Below, in pieces: positions 42,099 through 60,633 of a DNA stretch of 64,000 nucleotides. The notes under the pieces are model-generated. The model had not been told where the DNA came from. It made no database searches and saw nothing but the letters and a program-made list of their open reading frames with translations. The position numbers were made by a program, and so were the translations under genes. Source of the DNA: Candidatus Helarchaeota archaeon (GTDB lineage: Archaea > Asgardarchaeota > Lokiarchaeia > Helarchaeales > RDOG01); contig JAHPZH010000005.1 in NCBI GenBank assembly GCA_019058315.1, forward strand, positions 128,001 to 192,000. Direction: 5' to 3'. Within the stretch, counting starts at the first letter, position 1. Every line of letters starts with the position of its first letter.

Positions 42099-42878
42099 TT
42101 GGAAAAAGATATAGATTTAAAGGGGAAGTACATTTTAATTGTTGGTGGGGGTAAGGCTGGACTCCATGCATTTAAATATTGTAAGAAGAAAAAAGCCAAA
42201 ATTCTCATAGTTGACCCCGATCGTAATTGTATTTTAAGACATCATATTGAATATTTTTTAGAACCAAATGAAATTTCAGAAATTGATTCAATAGCAACTT
42301 CTTCAGAGTCCATATTAATTCAAGGAGGATTGAAAACTAGTTTTAGCATGCTTAATCAATTTAAATTTATATATGTTTTTCCTACTGTGCCCCTTCATCT
42401 CGCAGCCACTTTTGTTGTTCATTATTTGACAAAATTGGGAAAAAAAGTTTATCCTGATAAAGAAATGTTCTCTAAAATAATAAATAAAATTCCATCAGAC
42501 TTAATTCTTGATGTAGATAAGCAAAAAGCAATTGCAATTTTGAGTTACATGCCAGAAGGATTAGAATGTAAAAAAAATTGTTCTTCTCCAATAGTTTGCC
42601 CAGTTTCAGGTATTGAAAAATCAGCTCCATTATTTGAAATAATTAATTCAAAAATCAGTAATTTAAATGGAATAGTTCTCGAAAGTAAGCAGTTGGAGCC
42701 CGGACTAGGAGCAATTGAGGGAAATTCTATTTATAATTTATTTGAATTTATAAAAAATAAAAATCATATTATTATCGCAACTGCAAGTCGGTGTCATGGG
42801 CTTTTAAATACATTTAGAGTGGGGATAGATTTTCTGAAGATTATTAATCAAATAGCTCATCTAAATCTTCCAAGATAA
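42099..42878 (+). CDS. NAD(P)-binding Rossmann protein with Cys-rich C-terminal domain, function unknown
   Basis: ILIVGGGKAG; CxxxCxxxxxCP; ATASRCHG. Confidence 0.75.
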   Translation: MEKDIDLKGKYILIVGGGKAGLHAFKYCKKKKAKILIVDPDRNCILRHHIEYFLEPNEISEIDSIATSSESILIQGGLKTSFSMLNQFKFIYVFPTVPLHLAATFVVHYLTKLGKKVYPDKEMFSKIINKIPSDLILDVDKQKAIAILSYMPEGLECKKNCSSPIVCPVSGIEKSAPLFEIINSKISNLNGIVLESKQLEPGLGAIEGNSIYNLFEFIKNKNHIIIATASRCHGLLNTFRVGIDFLKIINQIAHLNLPR

Positions 42879-54039: not shown

Positions 54040-55521
54040 TTATATAATTTTATCTTGTTTTAGAATTTCAAATAATTCAAGAGCTGACATCGCGGCTAAT
54101 TCAGTTCCTATACCCCAGCCACCAGCATCGGCAGAAGAGAGGTATAATCCTTCAATAGGTGTTTTTTGTGATGGTCTTTTGTGACCTACTTGATCAATAG
54201 TCTGACCAATCCCAGTTCCTGCACCTTCTTTACCCATTCTCTTTTCAAGGTAAACATCAGATACAAAATCGGTAAAAACAATATGTTCTTCAACTTCAGG
54301 CCATAATGATAATAGCGAATTCATGCAAGTCTTCTCCCACTTTTTACTATTAGTTTCACGTTCGGCCATTGTTAGGTTTGCAACTCCAAGTGTAGTGGTT
54401 ACTGTATGAATATTTTGACAACCTTCGGGAGCTAATTTCGGATCATGATTACTCACTGGAACAATTAACAAAGCACTTTTCTCTGGAATTTCTATTTCTT
54501 TACTATCAATAGCAGAACCGTCAAATTTTCCTCTCAAAGTCTCTAGAATTCTCATATCCATCGGTGGGACGTATGTAATCATTTTTTGGTCAGTTATTAT
54601 AGTATCTAAAGATATTTTTTGGCTGCATACTTGCCCGCCCCAAATTAAGCCTTTAATACGTTCAGTATATGCTTTATTAAAATTCTTTTCCCCCGCTAAT
54701 TTAAGGATTGTTGTTTTAATATCTGCATTTGAGATCACAATATCCGCTGGATAGAATTTATTATCAGGACCAGCCTCAATTCCTTTAGCCTTTCCATCTT
54801 CAATAACTATTTTATTTACCGTTCCCTCTTCACCTATAATGATTTTTCCTCCAGAACTTTCAATAGCCCTACAATAAGCTTCGGGAACGGCACCACAACC
54901 ACCAATTGGATAGCCCATCGAACGATTCATGCCATTAAGGCGGACACAACGAACAAATTCTCCCGCAGAAGTAATATCTGGAGCAGTGCCAAACATGACT
55001 CCACCTTGCATCATGTACATCATTTTTGTCATTGCGTATCTTGAACTATCAGGAATAACTTCATTTAAATAATCTATTAGCCTAACTTCATCTAATTTTT
55101 TTATTTCTTCAGGGGTCATTTCAATAAATTTTTGCATAATTTCTTTTCCAGGTGCGGGTTTTTTACTTTTAGTTGGTCTATCCCGTTTCTTCTTGCCTTT
55201 TTTTCTTTGACCGGAATAGGAAATCCAATTACCCATAATATTAATTCTTGGTCCTGGATTAACTGTGTGGCTCCATTCTACCGTTTGACCACATCTGTCT
55301 AGTATTTCGCCTAATGGACCTTTCTCACAATTGCTAATAATATGGCAACCAATGTCCATACGCCAAGTTCTTCCTTGTTCATCTTTTTTATTATATGATG
55401 CACAACGTCCTCCAAGGATCGTGTTTTGTTCAAATAAAATAATATCTGATTTACTTTCTTTACTAAGTAAAGCTCCAATACCTGAACCACCTATCCCGCT
55501 ACCAATTATTATGACTTTCAT
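54040..55521 (-). CDS. Phytoene desaturase (CrtI/COG1233)-like FAD oxidoreductase, close paralog of 42914-44377
   Basis: IIGSGIGGSGIGAL, WGGQVCS, APEGCQN, GKEGAGTGIGQ, SSADAGGWG shared with the paralog. Confidence 0.88.
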   Translation of the reverse strand: MKVIIIGSGIGGSGIGALLSKESKSDIILFEQNTILGGRCASYNKKDEQGRTWRMDIGCHIISNCEKGPLGEILDRCGQTVEWSHTVNPGPRINIMGNWISYSGQRKKGKKKRDRPTKSKKPAPGKEIMQKFIEMTPEEIKKLDEVRLIDYLNEVIPDSSRYAMTKMMYMMQGGVMFGTAPDITSAGEFVRCVRLNGMNRSMGYPIGGCGAVPEAYCRAIESSGGKIIIGEEGTVNKIVIEDGKAKGIEAGPDNKFYPADIVISNADIKTTILKLAGEKNFNKAYTERIKGLIWGGQVCSQKISLDTIITDQKMITYVPPMDMRILETLRGKFDGSAIDSKEIEIPEKSALLIVPVSNHDPKLAPEGCQNIHTVTTTLGVANLTMAERETNSKKWEKTCMNSLLSLWPEVEEHIVFTDFVSDVYLEKRMGKEGAGTGIGQTIDQVGHKRPSQKTPIEGLYLSSADAGGWGIGTELAAMSALELFEILKQDKII

Positions 55522-56831: not shown

Positions 56832-57764
56832 TCACTTCTTTTTAACGACAATTACTATCACAATAGTAATACCGATTATAACAGCAACAGCAATTCCTAT
56901 GATAAGTCCTGTGTTTGCTCCACTTTCCATGGTCATCAAGGCTAATAGTACTAATGGAAGTAAATTAGTGCCACCAGCATTTTTTGTAAGGTTCATTTCC
57001 CAAACCAGAACCCAACCTCCACTGTATGTATACCATCGACTACAATTTACAATTCCTCTATTATTGATAACTAATTCTTTCATGTGGTCTCCATTAGTCA
57101 TTCCATCCCATACTCTCCAGATTCCTTCAACATTTGGAGATGCAGGATTGCTTTGTGAAACTCCAGATCCGCCACCGCCATGATGTAACATTATTCCCCA
57201 CGTCGTATTTACAATTGTATGATTAGTATGCGTCCAGTTCATAGGAACACAAAACGGAAGAAAATATGTTAGTAAATATCCAGGTGTTATATTTACGTAG
57301 AAGTTATAAAGACCTTGACAATTTGAAATGCCACTCTGTTCCCATTGTCTAAATGAAGAATTATACGCACTTATGACCCAAGGAAGACTTACTCCCATAA
57401 ATTCACTAGTGAGTAAGCTCCAACCAGATGATTGATTATAATAATATACTAACGCCGTTATTAAATCTGCATACCAAAGCCAACCAGTCTCATCATATAA
57501 CAAAAAAGCCCAAGAGTTATATCCATAAGTATACTTAAAATACACTTTATCACAGCTATTCATAGGAATAGATCCAAATAAACTATTACCACCAACAGTA
57601 CAATTATATAGATAATTTCTGATTGTAGAAGAATTAAATCCATTACCCCCTTCTTGCCAAGGTGGTGGTGGTATTTGGGCGGATATTGATTGAATAGGAA
57701 GAAGGAATAGCATTGATGCAATCAAAGTAACTAACAGAGGTAGAAATAAATTATTTTTTTTCAT
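56832..57764 (-). CDS. Secreted, C-terminally membrane-anchored protein
   Basis: Signal peptide, aromatic/Asn-rich ectodomain with sequons, C-terminal TM + KKK. Confidence 0.8.
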   Translation of the reverse strand: MKKNNLFLPLLVTLIASMLFLLPIQSISAQIPPPPWQEGGNGFNSSTIRNYLYNCTVGGNSLFGSIPMNSCDKVYFKYTYGYNSWAFLLYDETGWLWYADLITALVYYYNQSSGWSLLTSEFMGVSLPWVISAYNSSFRQWEQSGISNCQGLYNFYVNITPGYLLTYFLPFCVPMNWTHTNHTIVNTTWGIMLHHGGGGSGVSQSNPASPNVEGIWRVWDGMTNGDHMKELVINNRGIVNCSRWYTYSGGWVLVWEMNLTKNAGGTNLLPLVLLALMTMESGANTGLIIGIAVAVIIGITIVIVIVVKKK

Positions 57765-57978
57765 AGTTTTCCCTACCTATAATATGAACTATTAAAATTC
57801 TATATAAAAAATTTTATATAAAAATTTATTCGAAAATCTAGTTTTTTTATGAAAACAAACTAATATCTATAAGAAATATTACATTCAAACTTACTGGAAA
57901 CAGATTTCCAATAATAGAATTAATACAAAATAAAAAATGAAATAAATTATTTTTTTTATCATTTTGTCCCAATATTAT

Positions 57979-58049
57979 ACTGGAATAAGGAGCGCATCCC
58001 TATCAATAATACATTAAATTTTTTTGTATTATTTCATTTTTCTTCCAGT
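57979..58049 (-). promoter_or_regulatory. Eukaryote-like SECIS element in the 3' UTR of the selenoprotein gene
   Basis: Minus-strand RNA: ACUGGAA GAAAA AUGA AAUAAUACA AAAAAAUUUAA UGUAUUAUU GA UAGGGA UGCGC UCCUUA UUCCAGU. It shows helix I (ACUGGAA/UUCCAGU), an AUGA...GA core, a perfect 9-bp helix II and an A-rich apical loop, starting 1 nt after the TAG. Confidence 0.85.
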
Positions 58050-58050
58050 T

Positions 58051-58374
58051 CTATTTTAAATCACCGATTATTAGATAACCTCTTCCTTCATCTATTTTTC
58101 CATCAATTATTATTTTTTCTGCCATAAATAGAAAATATGCTGCATCTTCATCTACAAAAACTTGCAATCCATTTATAGTTCCTAATAATTCTAACTCATT
58201 CAATCTTGATGTATCCTCAAAATGGATCGATGTCCAGTGTGCTCTTTGAGTAGTACATCAAGAAAACCGCTCAAATTCTGTTATCACCAATATTTCATTA
58301 TTTTCTTTATTGTTTTTTAGTCGTTCAGTGATCACACGTTTGGCAAGGTCTGTCAACTCAATCTTTATAGTCAT
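58051..58374 (-). CDS. Selenoprotein, HesB/IscA-like fold, U-C motif (107 aa, Sec39)
   Basis: MTIKIELTDLAKRVITERLKNNKENNEILVITEFERFS-U(TGA 58260-58258)-CTTQRAHWTSIHFEDTSRLNELELLGTINGLQVFVDEDAAYFLFMAEKIIIDGKIDEGRGYLIIGDLK. HesB-like pattern (IELTDxA...INGLQVFVD...IID...G.L) on both sides of the UGA; SECIS downstream. Confidence 0.85.
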
Positions 58375-58456
58375 TCTAATTCAACTTTATATTCTTATCT
58401 TGTTAATACTCATTACTATTTAATAAAAACGATTTTGTAAAAATAAAAATTAGATT

Positions 58457-58744
58457 TTAATCTTTTATACCAGGTCCTTTAATAACACCTTCATGGTCAT
58501 CATAAGGGATTTGACGAATTAACGCCCAATTTTTTACTGCTCTGGAGTAAATTCGAACATCCTTAATATCGTCATATGCTCCGAAATAAACTACAACACT
58601 ACAATCTTTATCTTTGGTCTTGAATTTTCCAGCAATTTTTTTGATGAAAATTGGTTCATCTTCTATATCCATTTGAATTTTAGAATTCTTAGATAATAAT
58701 TCAATTGCAAGATCAATACCTGTCTTAATATCATCTTCTTTCAT
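58457..58744 (-). CDS. Small hypothetical protein, tandem paralog of 58760-59026
   Basis: MKEDDIKTGID...FIKKIAGKF vs MKKQDIEKGIE...FMRKLDGKF. Confidence 0.7.
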   Translation of the reverse strand: MKEDDIKTGIDLAIELLSKNSKIQMDIEDEPIFIKKIAGKFKTKDKDCSVVVYFGAYDDIKDVRIYSRAVKNWALIRQIPYDDHEGVIKGPGIKD

Positions 58745-58759
58745 ACAACATTCGCTCCA

Positions 58760-59026
58760 TTAACTAACTTCTCCCAAATCTTCTACTTTGATATTTCTTT
58801 TTTGCGCTCCTTTTATAACCATTTTTTCTAATAAAGCTATTTTCTCGGGATCTTCCGAAATTAAAACATACCCCAGAATACTGCGCACTTCATTATTGGA
58901 ATCCAAGAATTTTCCGTCCAATTTTCTCATAAAGCATATATCTTCCTTATAATCTATTTTTGTTTTGGAATTTTTTAGCGTTTCTACGAATATTTCTATT
59001 CCTTTTTCGATATCTTGTTTTTTCAT
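58760..59026 (-). CDS. Small hypothetical protein, tandem paralog of 58457-58744
   Basis: See paralog; 15-nt spacing. Confidence 0.7.
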   Translation of the reverse strand: MKKQDIEKGIEIFVETLKNSKTKIDYKEDICFMRKLDGKFLDSNNEVRSILGYVLISEDPEKIALLEKMVIKGAQKRNIKVEDLGEVS

Positions 59027-59142: not shown

Positions 59143-60633
59143 TTATTTTGATAATTTTTCAAAAAGAATTAAAGCACTATCTGCAGCAAGTTCCGCTCCA
59201 ATTCCGTGCATGCCAGTATCGGCTCCAACAACATAAAGATTTTTTATTGGGAGCTCCATTGGGGGTCTAAATTTTCCAACTTGATCTACAGTTTGCCCTA
59301 TTCCTATAACATTACCACCTTGTCCTGCAAATTTTTCAATTTCGGCGGGAGTCGTTATCTCCTTCCACATTACATGGTCTTCCATTTGTGGGAATATGTC
59401 CAATAACCCATTGTAAATTGCATCTGCCCATTTATCATAATCGCAATTACCTTCAGATGGGTTAGCTGGAACACCAGAACCTCCAAAAATTAATTGCTTT
59501 CCTTCAGGAGCCGATGTTGGGTCGAGATTAGATACGACAGGAACCATAATCATATAATGCTTTTCGGGAATATAGTTTTGAAAAGCTTCAGATTTTAAAA
59601 TTTCACCCACCGAAATTCTGGACATTATTTCATCAGTTTTAATTTCTCCACTCATTATTTTAGAAACAATTTCTTGATCAATACCAAATTCCTTACCGAA
59701 TTGTTCTACAGCTCTTGGCAAATCATCAAAATTAACATACATAAACATATTTTCTTCCGTAATTTTCTCATCGAGGGCAACTTTAACCATTAAAGTTGCT
59801 GCAGAAAACGAATAATTTTTTACTTTTTGAACAAAATCCTTTGAAAAATATTTTTCTCCGACTAAATTCAAAGTGGTCGCTTTAAGTCCAGCATTTGAAA
59901 TTACTATATCGGATTCTATAAATTCTCCATCATCTAATTCAACGCCAGTCGCTTTATTTTTTTCAACAATTATTTTCTTTACTTTTGTTTCTGTTTTTAC
60001 TTTACCTTTATCTTGGACTATAGAGTCACAATATGCACTAGGAATAGCAATACAACCACCTGTTGGATATCCACTACTTCTATTATTCATCATCTCTTTT
60101 TGACAAATAATGAATTCGCCAGTGCTAGTGGCTTGTTGAGTAACAAAATAGAGCCCACAAAAATAGGAAATTAGTGCTTGTGCCTTTGGATCATCAGTGT
60201 AACGTCCAACAAATTCATCAATGGGAACGTACATTAATTTCTCAATTTCCTCATCTGAAAATTTCAATACATCACTATATAATTTAATAAAATTGCCAAG
60301 ATCTTTACTACTGAAATTTAGTTTCCCAACATCCCGAGGAAACTTAATGATTTGACCATTAAAATGAAATTTTGGAAGTGGTCGGCAGTAATTCCATTTA
60401 ATGGAATTATTTTCAATGATTTGTGCTATTTTACCTAATCTACCCTTATCGCAGTTTGCTATTAAATGGCAACCTACATCTAGTTTAAAACCCTCCTTTT
60501 CATAGGTAGATAATCTTCCGCCTACAAGTGAATTTTTCTCGAATAACGTCACATCAAAACCGGAATGTTGTAATAATGCGCCCACTCCACTACCACCTAC
60601 GCCAGAGCCTATAATATTAACTTTTGTTTTCAT
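59143..60633 (-). CDS. Phytoene desaturase (CrtI/COG1233)-like FAD oxidoreductase
   Basis: IIGSGVGG, EKN..VGGR, GYPTGG, VISNAG, DPTSAPEG, LPIKNLYVVG. Confidence 0.88.
   Translation of the reverse strand: MKTKVNIIGSGVGGSGVGALLQHSGFDVTLFEKNSLVGGRLSTYEKEGFKLDVGCHLIANCDKGRLGKIAQIIENNSIKWNYCRPLPKFHFNGQIIKFPRDVGKLNFSSKDLGNFIKLYSDVLKFSDEEIEKLMYVPIDEFVGRYTDDPKAQALISYFCGLYFVTQQATSTGEFIICQKEMMNNRSSGYPTGGCIAIPSAYCDSIVQDKGKVKTETKVKKIIVEKNKATGVELDDGEFIESDIVISNAGLKATTLNLVGEKYFSKDFVQKVKNYSFSAATLMVKVALDEKITEENMFMYVNFDDLPRAVEQFGKEFGIDQEIVSKIMSGEIKTDEIMSRISVGEILKSEAFQNYIPEKHYMIMVPVVSNLDPTSAPEGKQLIFGGSGVPANPSEGNCDYDKWADAIYNGLLDIFPQMEDHVMWKEITTPAEIEKFAGQGGNVIGIGQTVDQVGKFRPPMELPIKNLYVVGADTGMHGIGAELAADSALILFEKLSK

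Follow-up and report, generated by a model that had tools for sequence, protein, structure and literature searches.

A lokiSECIS element with a kink-turn-like core and a conserved third arm behind a predicted IscA/HesB-fold selenoprotein gene of a Lokiarchaeia genome

Introduction

The window studied here, by which we mean the whole stretch of 64,000 nucleotides that was analysed (contig C2:128001-192000), belongs to a Lokiarchaeia genome of 5.79 Mb in 12 contigs with roughly 30% G+C. A first-pass annotation made from the letters alone had pointed to a short structured RNA in it, which it read as a eukaryote-like selenocysteine insertion (SECIS) element of the Lokiarchaeal type carrying an extra hairpin in the 3′ side of its internal loop. 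The locus raises two questions: whether this RNA serves a selenoprotein gene, and which one, and whether the extra hairpin is a peculiarity of a single copy or a part of the element itself.

SECIS elements of this general kind have been described. In the text of Mariotti et al. 2016 (PMC4989117), the lokiSECIS is defined by an AUGA, a 9-bp stem, an 11-nt apical loop whose first five bases are mostly A, a GA (rarely AA) following the stem and a final loop G, as a rule preceded by A, that is called "ultraconserved", and the Asgard models outlined in the methods of Huang et al. 2024 (PMC11227280) cover the core, the upper stem and the apical loop. As for the genes served, the text of Huang et al. 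2024 lists seven Asgard selenoprotein families, and eleven archaeal families are given in the list of a 2026 review.

Results

A putative selenoprotein gene upstream of the element

When the minus strand of 58051-58377 was translated with TGA read as selenocysteine (U), we found a single frame open from the ATG at 58374 to the TAG at 58053-58051, in which the Sec lies within the motif F-S-U-C (Table 1). ORF calling under table 11 recovers the C-terminal 50 aa alone, as an ORF at 58051-58203 (-). The distance from the UGA (58260-58258) to the AUGA of the element was measured at 223 nt, close to the "about 220 nt" of the first-pass annotation, and the first helix of the element begins 2 nt past the UAG stop.

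Table 1. Features of the selenoprotein locus, in window coordinates
Feature	Position	Strand	Basis
Putative selenoprotein gene, unannotated: 107 codons + UAG stop, predicted IscA/HesB fold, Sec at codon 39	58051..58374	-	TGA=U translation
In-frame UGA read as selenocysteine, followed by UGU (Cys)	58258..58260	-	sequence; family alignment
Complete SECIS, three-way junction with kink-turn (k-turn)	57979..58049 (71 nt)	-	MFE fold, R2 score, covariation in relatives
Helix I, 5′ strand ACUGGAA	58043..58049	-	pairs with 57979-57985, 7 bp
k-turn bulged strand: -1b A 58039; bulge L1-L3 AAU 58038-58036; G1b A2b 58035-58034	58034..58039	-	sequence
Helix II (NC helix), 5′ strand, 9 nt	58025..58033	-	perfect 9 bp with 58005-58013
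Apical loop of 11 nt, AAAAAAUUUAA; opens with six A and ends AA, not the usual AG	58014..58024	-	MFE fold
Helix II, 3′ strand	58005..58013	-	MFE fold
k-turn non-bulged strand: G2n A1n 58004-58003; -1n U 58002	58002..58004	-	sequence
Side hairpin (third arm): stem UAGGGA/UCCUUA, loop UGCGC 57996-57992	57986..58002	-	MFE fold; covariation; RNAalifold
Helix I, 3′ strand UUCCAGU	57979..57985	-	MFE fold; covariation
Likely transcription stop: oligo-U (UUUUUU A UUUU) ~45 nt past the SECIS	57927..57937	-	read from sequence

Four further Asgard genomes encode distant homologues of the protein; at the Sec site two of these homologues have TGA and the other two Cys-Cys. In the latter pair (L030 and L031), it is the second residue of the CC motif that is aligned to the UGA. 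Further family members were located via their SECIS, namely two paralogues in the same genome and three in relatives, and the Sec column of the family alignment is occupied by U or C in 10/10 members, with homology running on both sides of the UGA. The search of genome contigs and metagenome contigs returned no close orthologue of the protein, so that there is no orthologue-level covariation for this particular SECIS copy.

The Pfam model Fe-S_biosyn (PF01521) matches 6/10 family members, with a best E of 4.4e-6, while the selenoprotein itself scores below the cut-off of that model (13.5 vs 26.3 bits) and below the curated cut-off of TIGR01911 (14.9 vs 66.35 bits, E 0.031). A weak match to NF041239, a family with a CC/Se motif, was obtained for the homologue of genome G277 (E 0.0057). 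The AF2 model of the selenoprotein has a pLDDT of 77.8; its top PDB matches are IscA, SufA and DsrR (TM 0.5-0.62, best E 2.5e-4), and the predicted fold is complete only when the halves on both sides of the UGA are joined. Judging from these best matches, the predicted product would be an IscA/HesB-fold selenoprotein. It would resemble the HesB-like selenoproteins of TIGR01911 and the NF041239 family in being a small protein of predicted IscA/HesB fold with Sec probably at a conserved Cys position, but it differs from them in its motif, which is U-C rather than UxGP, in its SECIS, which is of the Asgard type and lies in the 3′ UTR, and in scores that fall far under the cut-offs. A HesB/IscA-like family in Asgard archaea is absent from the lists of Huang et al. 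2024 and of the 2026 review.

Directly upstream of the selenoprotein gene, at 58457-59026 (-), we observed tandem paralogous small ORFs of 95 and 88 aa, both starting MK..DI..GI, which may form one operon with it. The locus is also flanked on either side by paralogous FAD-dependent oxidoreductase-like genes of ~495 aa with an N-terminal GSGxGGSG, at 54040-55521 (-) and 59143-60633 (-). Oligo-T terminators are used in archaea, whose genes often end in oligo-U, and by analogy the oligo-U tracts downstream of the element are likely an archaeal transcription stop.

Fold of the element and its place among known SECIS

The AUGA/GA core, the 7-bp helix I, the perfect 9-bp helix II and the side hairpin UAGGGA-UGCGC-UCCUUA of the first-pass annotation were all recovered, exact to the base, from the minus-strand sequence and the RNAfold structure. 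The three-way fold is both the MFE and the centroid structure, at -17.3 kcal/mol, compared with -8.4 +/- 2.8 kcal/mol for dinucleotide shuffles (z -3.2; 2/200 shuffles as good as the native sequence), and there is no mismatch in any of its helices. A 5′ loop, GAAAA, precedes the AUGA (58037-58034, -).

The features of the lokiSECIS are nearly all present: an AUGA directly 5′ of the stem, 9 bp, an 11-nt loop that starts with AAAAAA, and the GA at 58004-58003 (-). The one missing is the final loop G, usually found as AG; here the loop ends in AA, as it does in 3/73 relatives, with AG in 65/73. This last base was overlooked in the first reading of the sequence. That reading was right in calling helix II shorter than its eukaryotic counterparts, 9 bp being the length found, but this is no peculiarity of the element, since it equals the published lokiSECIS geometry (PMC4989117). 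When the region 57700-58500 was scanned with the SECIS covariance models of Rfam, no match was obtained at E up to 10, and only sub-threshold snoRNA noise appeared.

Family membership was assessed with a covariance model of our own. Reference SECIS were located 3′ of protein-defined genes, namely SelD, a NiFe hydrogenase and three VhuD carrying one TGA or two, and some further ones by descriptor. MAFFT alignments (A1 and A2) scrambled the 3′ half of the SECIS, and they were replaced by a single-sequence covariance model followed by realignment. Eight SECIS, the element under study not among them, went into the resulting model, R2. Searched over the 5.79 Mb of the genome, R2 ranked the element first with 69.1 bits (E 1.5e-14), and since it was trained without the element a chance match is excluded. 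Matches of R2 at E<1e-4 in the genome lie just 3′ of ORFs with an in-frame UGA in 9/9 cases; the ORFs in question encode VhuD, hydrogenase, three IscA-like proteins, a DsbA-like protein (U-P-W-C), a ubiquitin-fold protein (C-U-U) and a small membrane protein. Together with the published lokiSECIS geometry, the R2 score supports the initial description of a SECIS that is eukaryote-like, of the Lokiarchaeal type and built on a kink-turn core. The element is a lokiSECIS, or Asgard type I eSECIS-like structure, and thus of an already known kind.

Pattern searches were less informative. A strict perfect-stem pattern found only 2 true elements in the genome. A relaxed descriptor returned true elements amid noise and is weak evidence when taken alone, because its "three-way" matches made up 14% in the reversed genome vs 19% in the real one. 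A 25-bit match of the single-sequence model R1 within the window, at 42421-42481 (+), was judged a false positive; it is AT-rich and without the AUGA and most of helix II.

Several other genes also precede elements of this kind. Locus L054:1136-2146 (G277:C185) holds a tandem pair of IscA-like Sec genes, each with its own three-way SECIS, in which the stop codon is the UGA of the AUGA core. At L046 (G000:C3:493159-496232), an ORF with the motif F-D-F-I-U-P-W-C-Y ends just before a SECIS at C3:494659-494732 (-) and appears to be a DsbA-like Asgard selenoprotein, of a sort rare according to the text of Huang et al. 2024. In several genomes of the class (L053, L060, L064, L068, L069, L078), small single-pass membrane ORFs with the motif G-G-G-U-x-C lie directly 5′ of high-scoring SECIS, and they may represent a selenoprotein family outside the published lists.

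Selenocysteine machinery of the genome

The first-pass annotation had made its reading depend on the presence of tRNA-Sec, SelB, SepSecS and SelD, and all four were found. The tRNA-Sec scores 63.5 bits and has the anticodon TCA (ARAGORN), SepSecS scores 400 bits and SelB 287 bits, the latter above its curated cut-off; SelD has an in-frame TGA. A KTI12/PSTK-like gene (116 bits) is a candidate for PSTK. SelB, SepSecS and tRNA-Sec adjoin one another at C5:124363-127228. Over the stretch compared, this SelD agrees residue for residue with the entry Lokiarchaeia_GCA_019058315 in a FASTA supplement to Huang et al. 2024 (PMC11227280), so that the genome, or one nearly identical to it, was part of their survey. 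A search of the genome for an extra, SBP2-like L7Ae-domain gene found none, the L7Ae family being represented by two ribosomal-type genes only, which agrees with the literature. Beside SelB, SepSecS and tRNA-Sec (G000:C5:124363-128115), we also noted an AIR-synthase/SelD-like paralogue without TGA.

The third arm in relatives

The side hairpin had been taken for a structural variant of this element that turns its core into a three-way junction. It is a variant relative to the published models only, and it is not private to this copy. Comparison with the other SECIS of the genome (VhuD, SelD and others) revealed the same arm at the same position: judged by eye and by MFE folding, each selenoprotein 3′ UTR examined, that of SelD with its type II element included, has a hairpin of 4-6 bp after the 3′ GA and ahead of helix I's 3′ strand. 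Full-length matches of R2 were obtained in 129/151 genomes of the class, amounting to about 344 elements, and in a phylum-wide sample matches occurred in 5/5 genomes of one family from another class.

The fold, for which the earlier reading had asked for covariation, is supported both in an alignment of 42 elements and by RNAalifold. In the 42 model-aligned elements, 91.6% of cells form standard pairs, a count taken from an alignment that was fitted to the model, vs 52% in shuffled alignments and 38-50% when pairing partners were slid by 1-3 columns. Double changes occur in 22/22 pairs; helix I covaries in 7/7 pairs and helix II in 9/9, and in the side hairpin compensatory changes are seen in 5/5 modelled pairs, with 93.5% of cells paired. 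RNAalifold found the same three helices de novo, with at least one compensatory change in 19/19 pairs. The loop of the side hairpin reads YGYR in 63/73 relatives and contains GC in the other 10, and the hairpin lies 0-4 nt from the core GA; alignment A7 and the set of 73 elements were mostly gathered with an arm-containing model, and their counts are biased to that extent.

We therefore also assembled a sample blind to the RNA, consisting of 40 two-TGA VhuD genes from 37 genomes of five families, a single gene family gathered by protein homology alone with two-Sec VhuD as the query. (A Pfam FlpD search of 41 genomes had returned almost only Cys forms, and was replaced by that query.) The third arm is present in 40/40 of these genes: the parser found the core, side hairpin and helix I in 34, and the other six, which include flanks from genomes without any R2 match, were resolved by MFE folding or inspection. 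A comparable relaxed parser run on random AUGA-stem-GA candidates was positive in 14-19%. The third arm is thus conserved and present in every SECIS of this type sampled, a rule for the class and not a one-off.

Some VhuD elements have departed from the usual core. Behind a two-Sec VhuD at L039:139-204 (-), which corresponds to G000:C11 about 387935-388000, AAAA...AA replaces AUGA...GA and there is no k-turn core; this SECIS keeps the 9-bp stem, the A-rich loop, the side hairpin (loop AAUGCAA) and helix I. In two genomes of the same order (L134, L135; G003:C59:15627-15907, G001:C57:8246-8526), the VhuD SECIS has GGAGGA in place of AAUGA, a loop of 10 nt and no U before the GA; a GA/GA core, the third arm and helix I are kept, and these elements were missed by R2.

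Two possible contacts of the side loop were considered. A kissing loop through a self-complementary UUGCAA was rejected, most loop variants not being palindromic, and when the relatives and VhuD elements were inspected, the side loop and the apical loop were not seen to covary.

The core as a probable kink-turn

Parsing of 73 distinct elements for k-turn features gave a helix II of 9 bp in 73/73 and an apical loop of 11 nt in 70/73. The three bases before G1b (L1-L3) are AAU in 52 and GAU in 15. Positions -1b and -1n form a pair in 72/73 (G-C 60, A-U 11, U-A 1), a figure reached by 0/5000 shuffles, and a -2b/-2n pair forms in 46/73, above any shuffle. Among the RNA-blind VhuD elements there is a further subclass, which has U-A at -1 and C-G at -2. 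At 3b.3n, where helix II starts, non-Watson-Crick pairs are frequent (U.U 18, U.G 11, G.U 9).

Judged by its sequence, the core conforms to a standard k-turn having three bulged nucleotides, and its canonical (C) stem of 1-2 bp opens into a three-way junction. It shares with standard kink-turns such as Kt-7 and those of box C/D (PMC5061560) the 3-nt bulge, the pairs G1b.A1n and A2b.G2n and a Watson-Crick -1b/-1n pair, a likeness at the level of sequence, but it differs from them in that its C helix branches after 1-2 bp. The element under study belongs to the covarying minority with A-U at -1b/-1n, and its -1n U (58002) has as its partner either the -1b A or a base within the side hairpin.

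A k-turn made three-way by an extra helix on the non-bulged strand recalls the k-junction of the TPP riboswitch and of DUF-3268 (PMC4005666, PMC10573300), in which, by definition, the third helix lies on that strand between A1n and -1n (PMC10573300). A strict k-junction was rejected, since the covarying -1b/-1n pair, often with -2b/-2n too, precedes the third helix: the order is k-turn, then junction. It is plausible by analogy that the extra helix is coaxially stacked with the C arm, as in a k-junction.

The 3b.3n pair of this element is a Watson-Crick A-U. According to the rules of Lilley (PMC4382518), a k-turn with such a pair should not fold in metal ions alone, and therefore a protein partner is predicted for its folding; L7Ae or L30e would be the obvious candidates.

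Discussion

The element, its gene and the alternatives

We consider it highly probable (about 0.9) that the element is a functional lokiSECIS in the 3′ UTR of an IscA/HesB-fold selenoprotein gene, built as a k-turn with a three-way junction and directing Sec insertion at the UGA. The mRNA would fold into a kink-turn with the AAU as its bulge and tandem G.A/A.G pairs, helix II forming the non-canonical arm with its A-rich loop of 11 nt, while the C stem of 1-2 bp would open directly into the junction, where helix I meets a short hairpin whose loop contains GC; this three-dimensional geometry we infer from the likeness to standard k-turns. By analogy with the eukaryotic and euryarchaeal systems, the folded RNA would recruit Sec-tRNASec in complex with archaeal SelB and GTP, directly or via a k-turn-binding adaptor, and a ribosome paused at the UGA of codon 39, 223 nt upstream, would then insert selenocysteine instead of terminating. 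For the third arm, our best guess is that it stacks on a C stem of 2 bp and so supplies a stable canonical arm, and that its conserved loop is a contact for a binding factor or for helix II.

Part of this reading would fall if the side hairpin were a chance product, or a functionless insertion specific to one gene. A stem of 6 bp is short, the genome has only 30% G+C, and a hairpin plus stem is found in 14-19% of random candidates; but such an origin is made very improbable by the arm recurring in one and the same place throughout the examined selenoprotein 3′ UTRs of the genome, in 40/40 protein-defined VhuD from five families and in a second class, and by its compensatory changes at each pair and its loop with a conserved G-Y. 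The hairpin could instead be a separate element that abuts on the Sec signal without belonging to it, such as a terminator or a stabiliser of the mRNA 3′ end, as a U run following the hairpin in some relatives (G277, L034:1849-1919), the frequent oligo-U ends of archaeal genes and the oligo-U ~45 nt downstream in this locus might suggest. However, no U run directly follows the hairpin here, helix I always encloses it with strands that covary across it, its spacing to the core GA is fixed at 0-4 nt, and its loop sequence is kept across unrelated genes, for which a simple terminator would have no need; we regard this alternative as unlikely, although less so than a chance hairpin.

The gene itself might be a decaying pseudogene, or two small ORFs, with the SECIS as a relic. 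There are no close orthologues that could show selection, the conserved G of the apical loop is lost and the protein falls under the Fe-S_biosyn and TIGR01911 cut-offs. Against decay, the frame is open on both sides of a single UGA, homology runs across that UGA, which is aligned to Cys or Sec, the predicted fold needs both halves, and the SECIS is the top-scoring one of the genome with helices free of mismatches, so that we give a relic about the same low weight as a separate abutting element. The least probable of the alternatives is a k-turn RNA of another sort with no link to selenocysteine, for example a box C/D-like sRNA or an L7Ae-regulated mRNA element. C/D boxes, too, are marked by AUGA/GA and a bulge of 3 nt, and weak sub-threshold Rfam snoRNA matches do occur nearby, but these sit at 58255-58416, far below the gathering scores; the element has no guide region and no C′/D′ boxes, and all the family members of the genome lie directly 3′ of UGA-containing ORFs.

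Relation to known SECIS

Taken as a functional lokiSECIS, the element agrees with the lokiSECIS in the text of Mariotti et al. 2016 (PMC4989117) and with the Asgard type I eSECIS-like structures in that of Huang et al. 2024 (PMC11227280) in its AUGA, stem, A-run loop and GA and in its site just 3′ of the stop, and its host agrees with theirs in being a member of the Lokiarchaeia with archaeal/eukaryotic Sec machinery and no SBP2. It differs from the published lokiSECIS in the last loop base, which is A, and in serving a gene outside the seven Asgard families listed. While the element type itself is known, the third arm, the three-way junction and the -1b/-1n covariation are absent from the text of both papers (figures and the 2016 supplement aside), as is the IscA-fold selenoprotein family from the published text; a literature search for "SECIS" with "three-way junction" yielded nothing relevant.

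With the eukaryotic SECIS type I of Rfam, the element shares a location in the 3′ UTR, action at a distance on a UGA, an AUGA...GA quartet with tandem sheared G.A pairs, a run of unpaired A in the apical loop and a helix I that closes the structure. In contrast, helix II has 9 bp here and ~12-15 there, the 3′ side of the internal loop is filled here by a conserved hairpin, and there is neither an Rfam match nor an SBP2 homologue on the archaeal side. The VhuD SECIS of Methanococcales and Methanopyrus, as presented in the text of PMC4989117, is a further point of comparison, with its AUGA opposite GAC/AAC beside an extra short stem; the C that follows the GA in those elements corresponds to the -1n C of Asgard elements. 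Those SECIS nevertheless differ in keeping the euryarchaeal GAA_A bulge and in being without the module of 9 bp and 11 nt.

Implications

A broader proposal is that the third arm, with its G-C(A) loop, is obligatory, that together with the k-turn on a C stem of 2 bp it forms the surface for an archaeal SECIS-binding factor (L7Ae, L30e, SelB or a new protein), and that the ancestor of the eukaryotic SECIS was likewise three-way and lost the arm when SBP2 arose. We hold this only tentatively, as somewhat less probable than its opposite. If the arm is indeed obligatory, the published two-helix models are incomplete and the arm would offer a handle for fishing out the SECIS-binding factor.

An Asgard SECIS core that is apparently a k-turn set on a three-way junction presents features that can be mutated, namely the -1b/-1n pair, the third arm and the GC loop. 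Search patterns limited to core, stem and loop can be sharpened accordingly, the 71-nt model having recovered about 340 elements in 129 genomes. Finally, R2 reveals selenoprotein families that homology-based surveys have missed, among them the IscA-fold family, which was found in a genome that one such survey had included.
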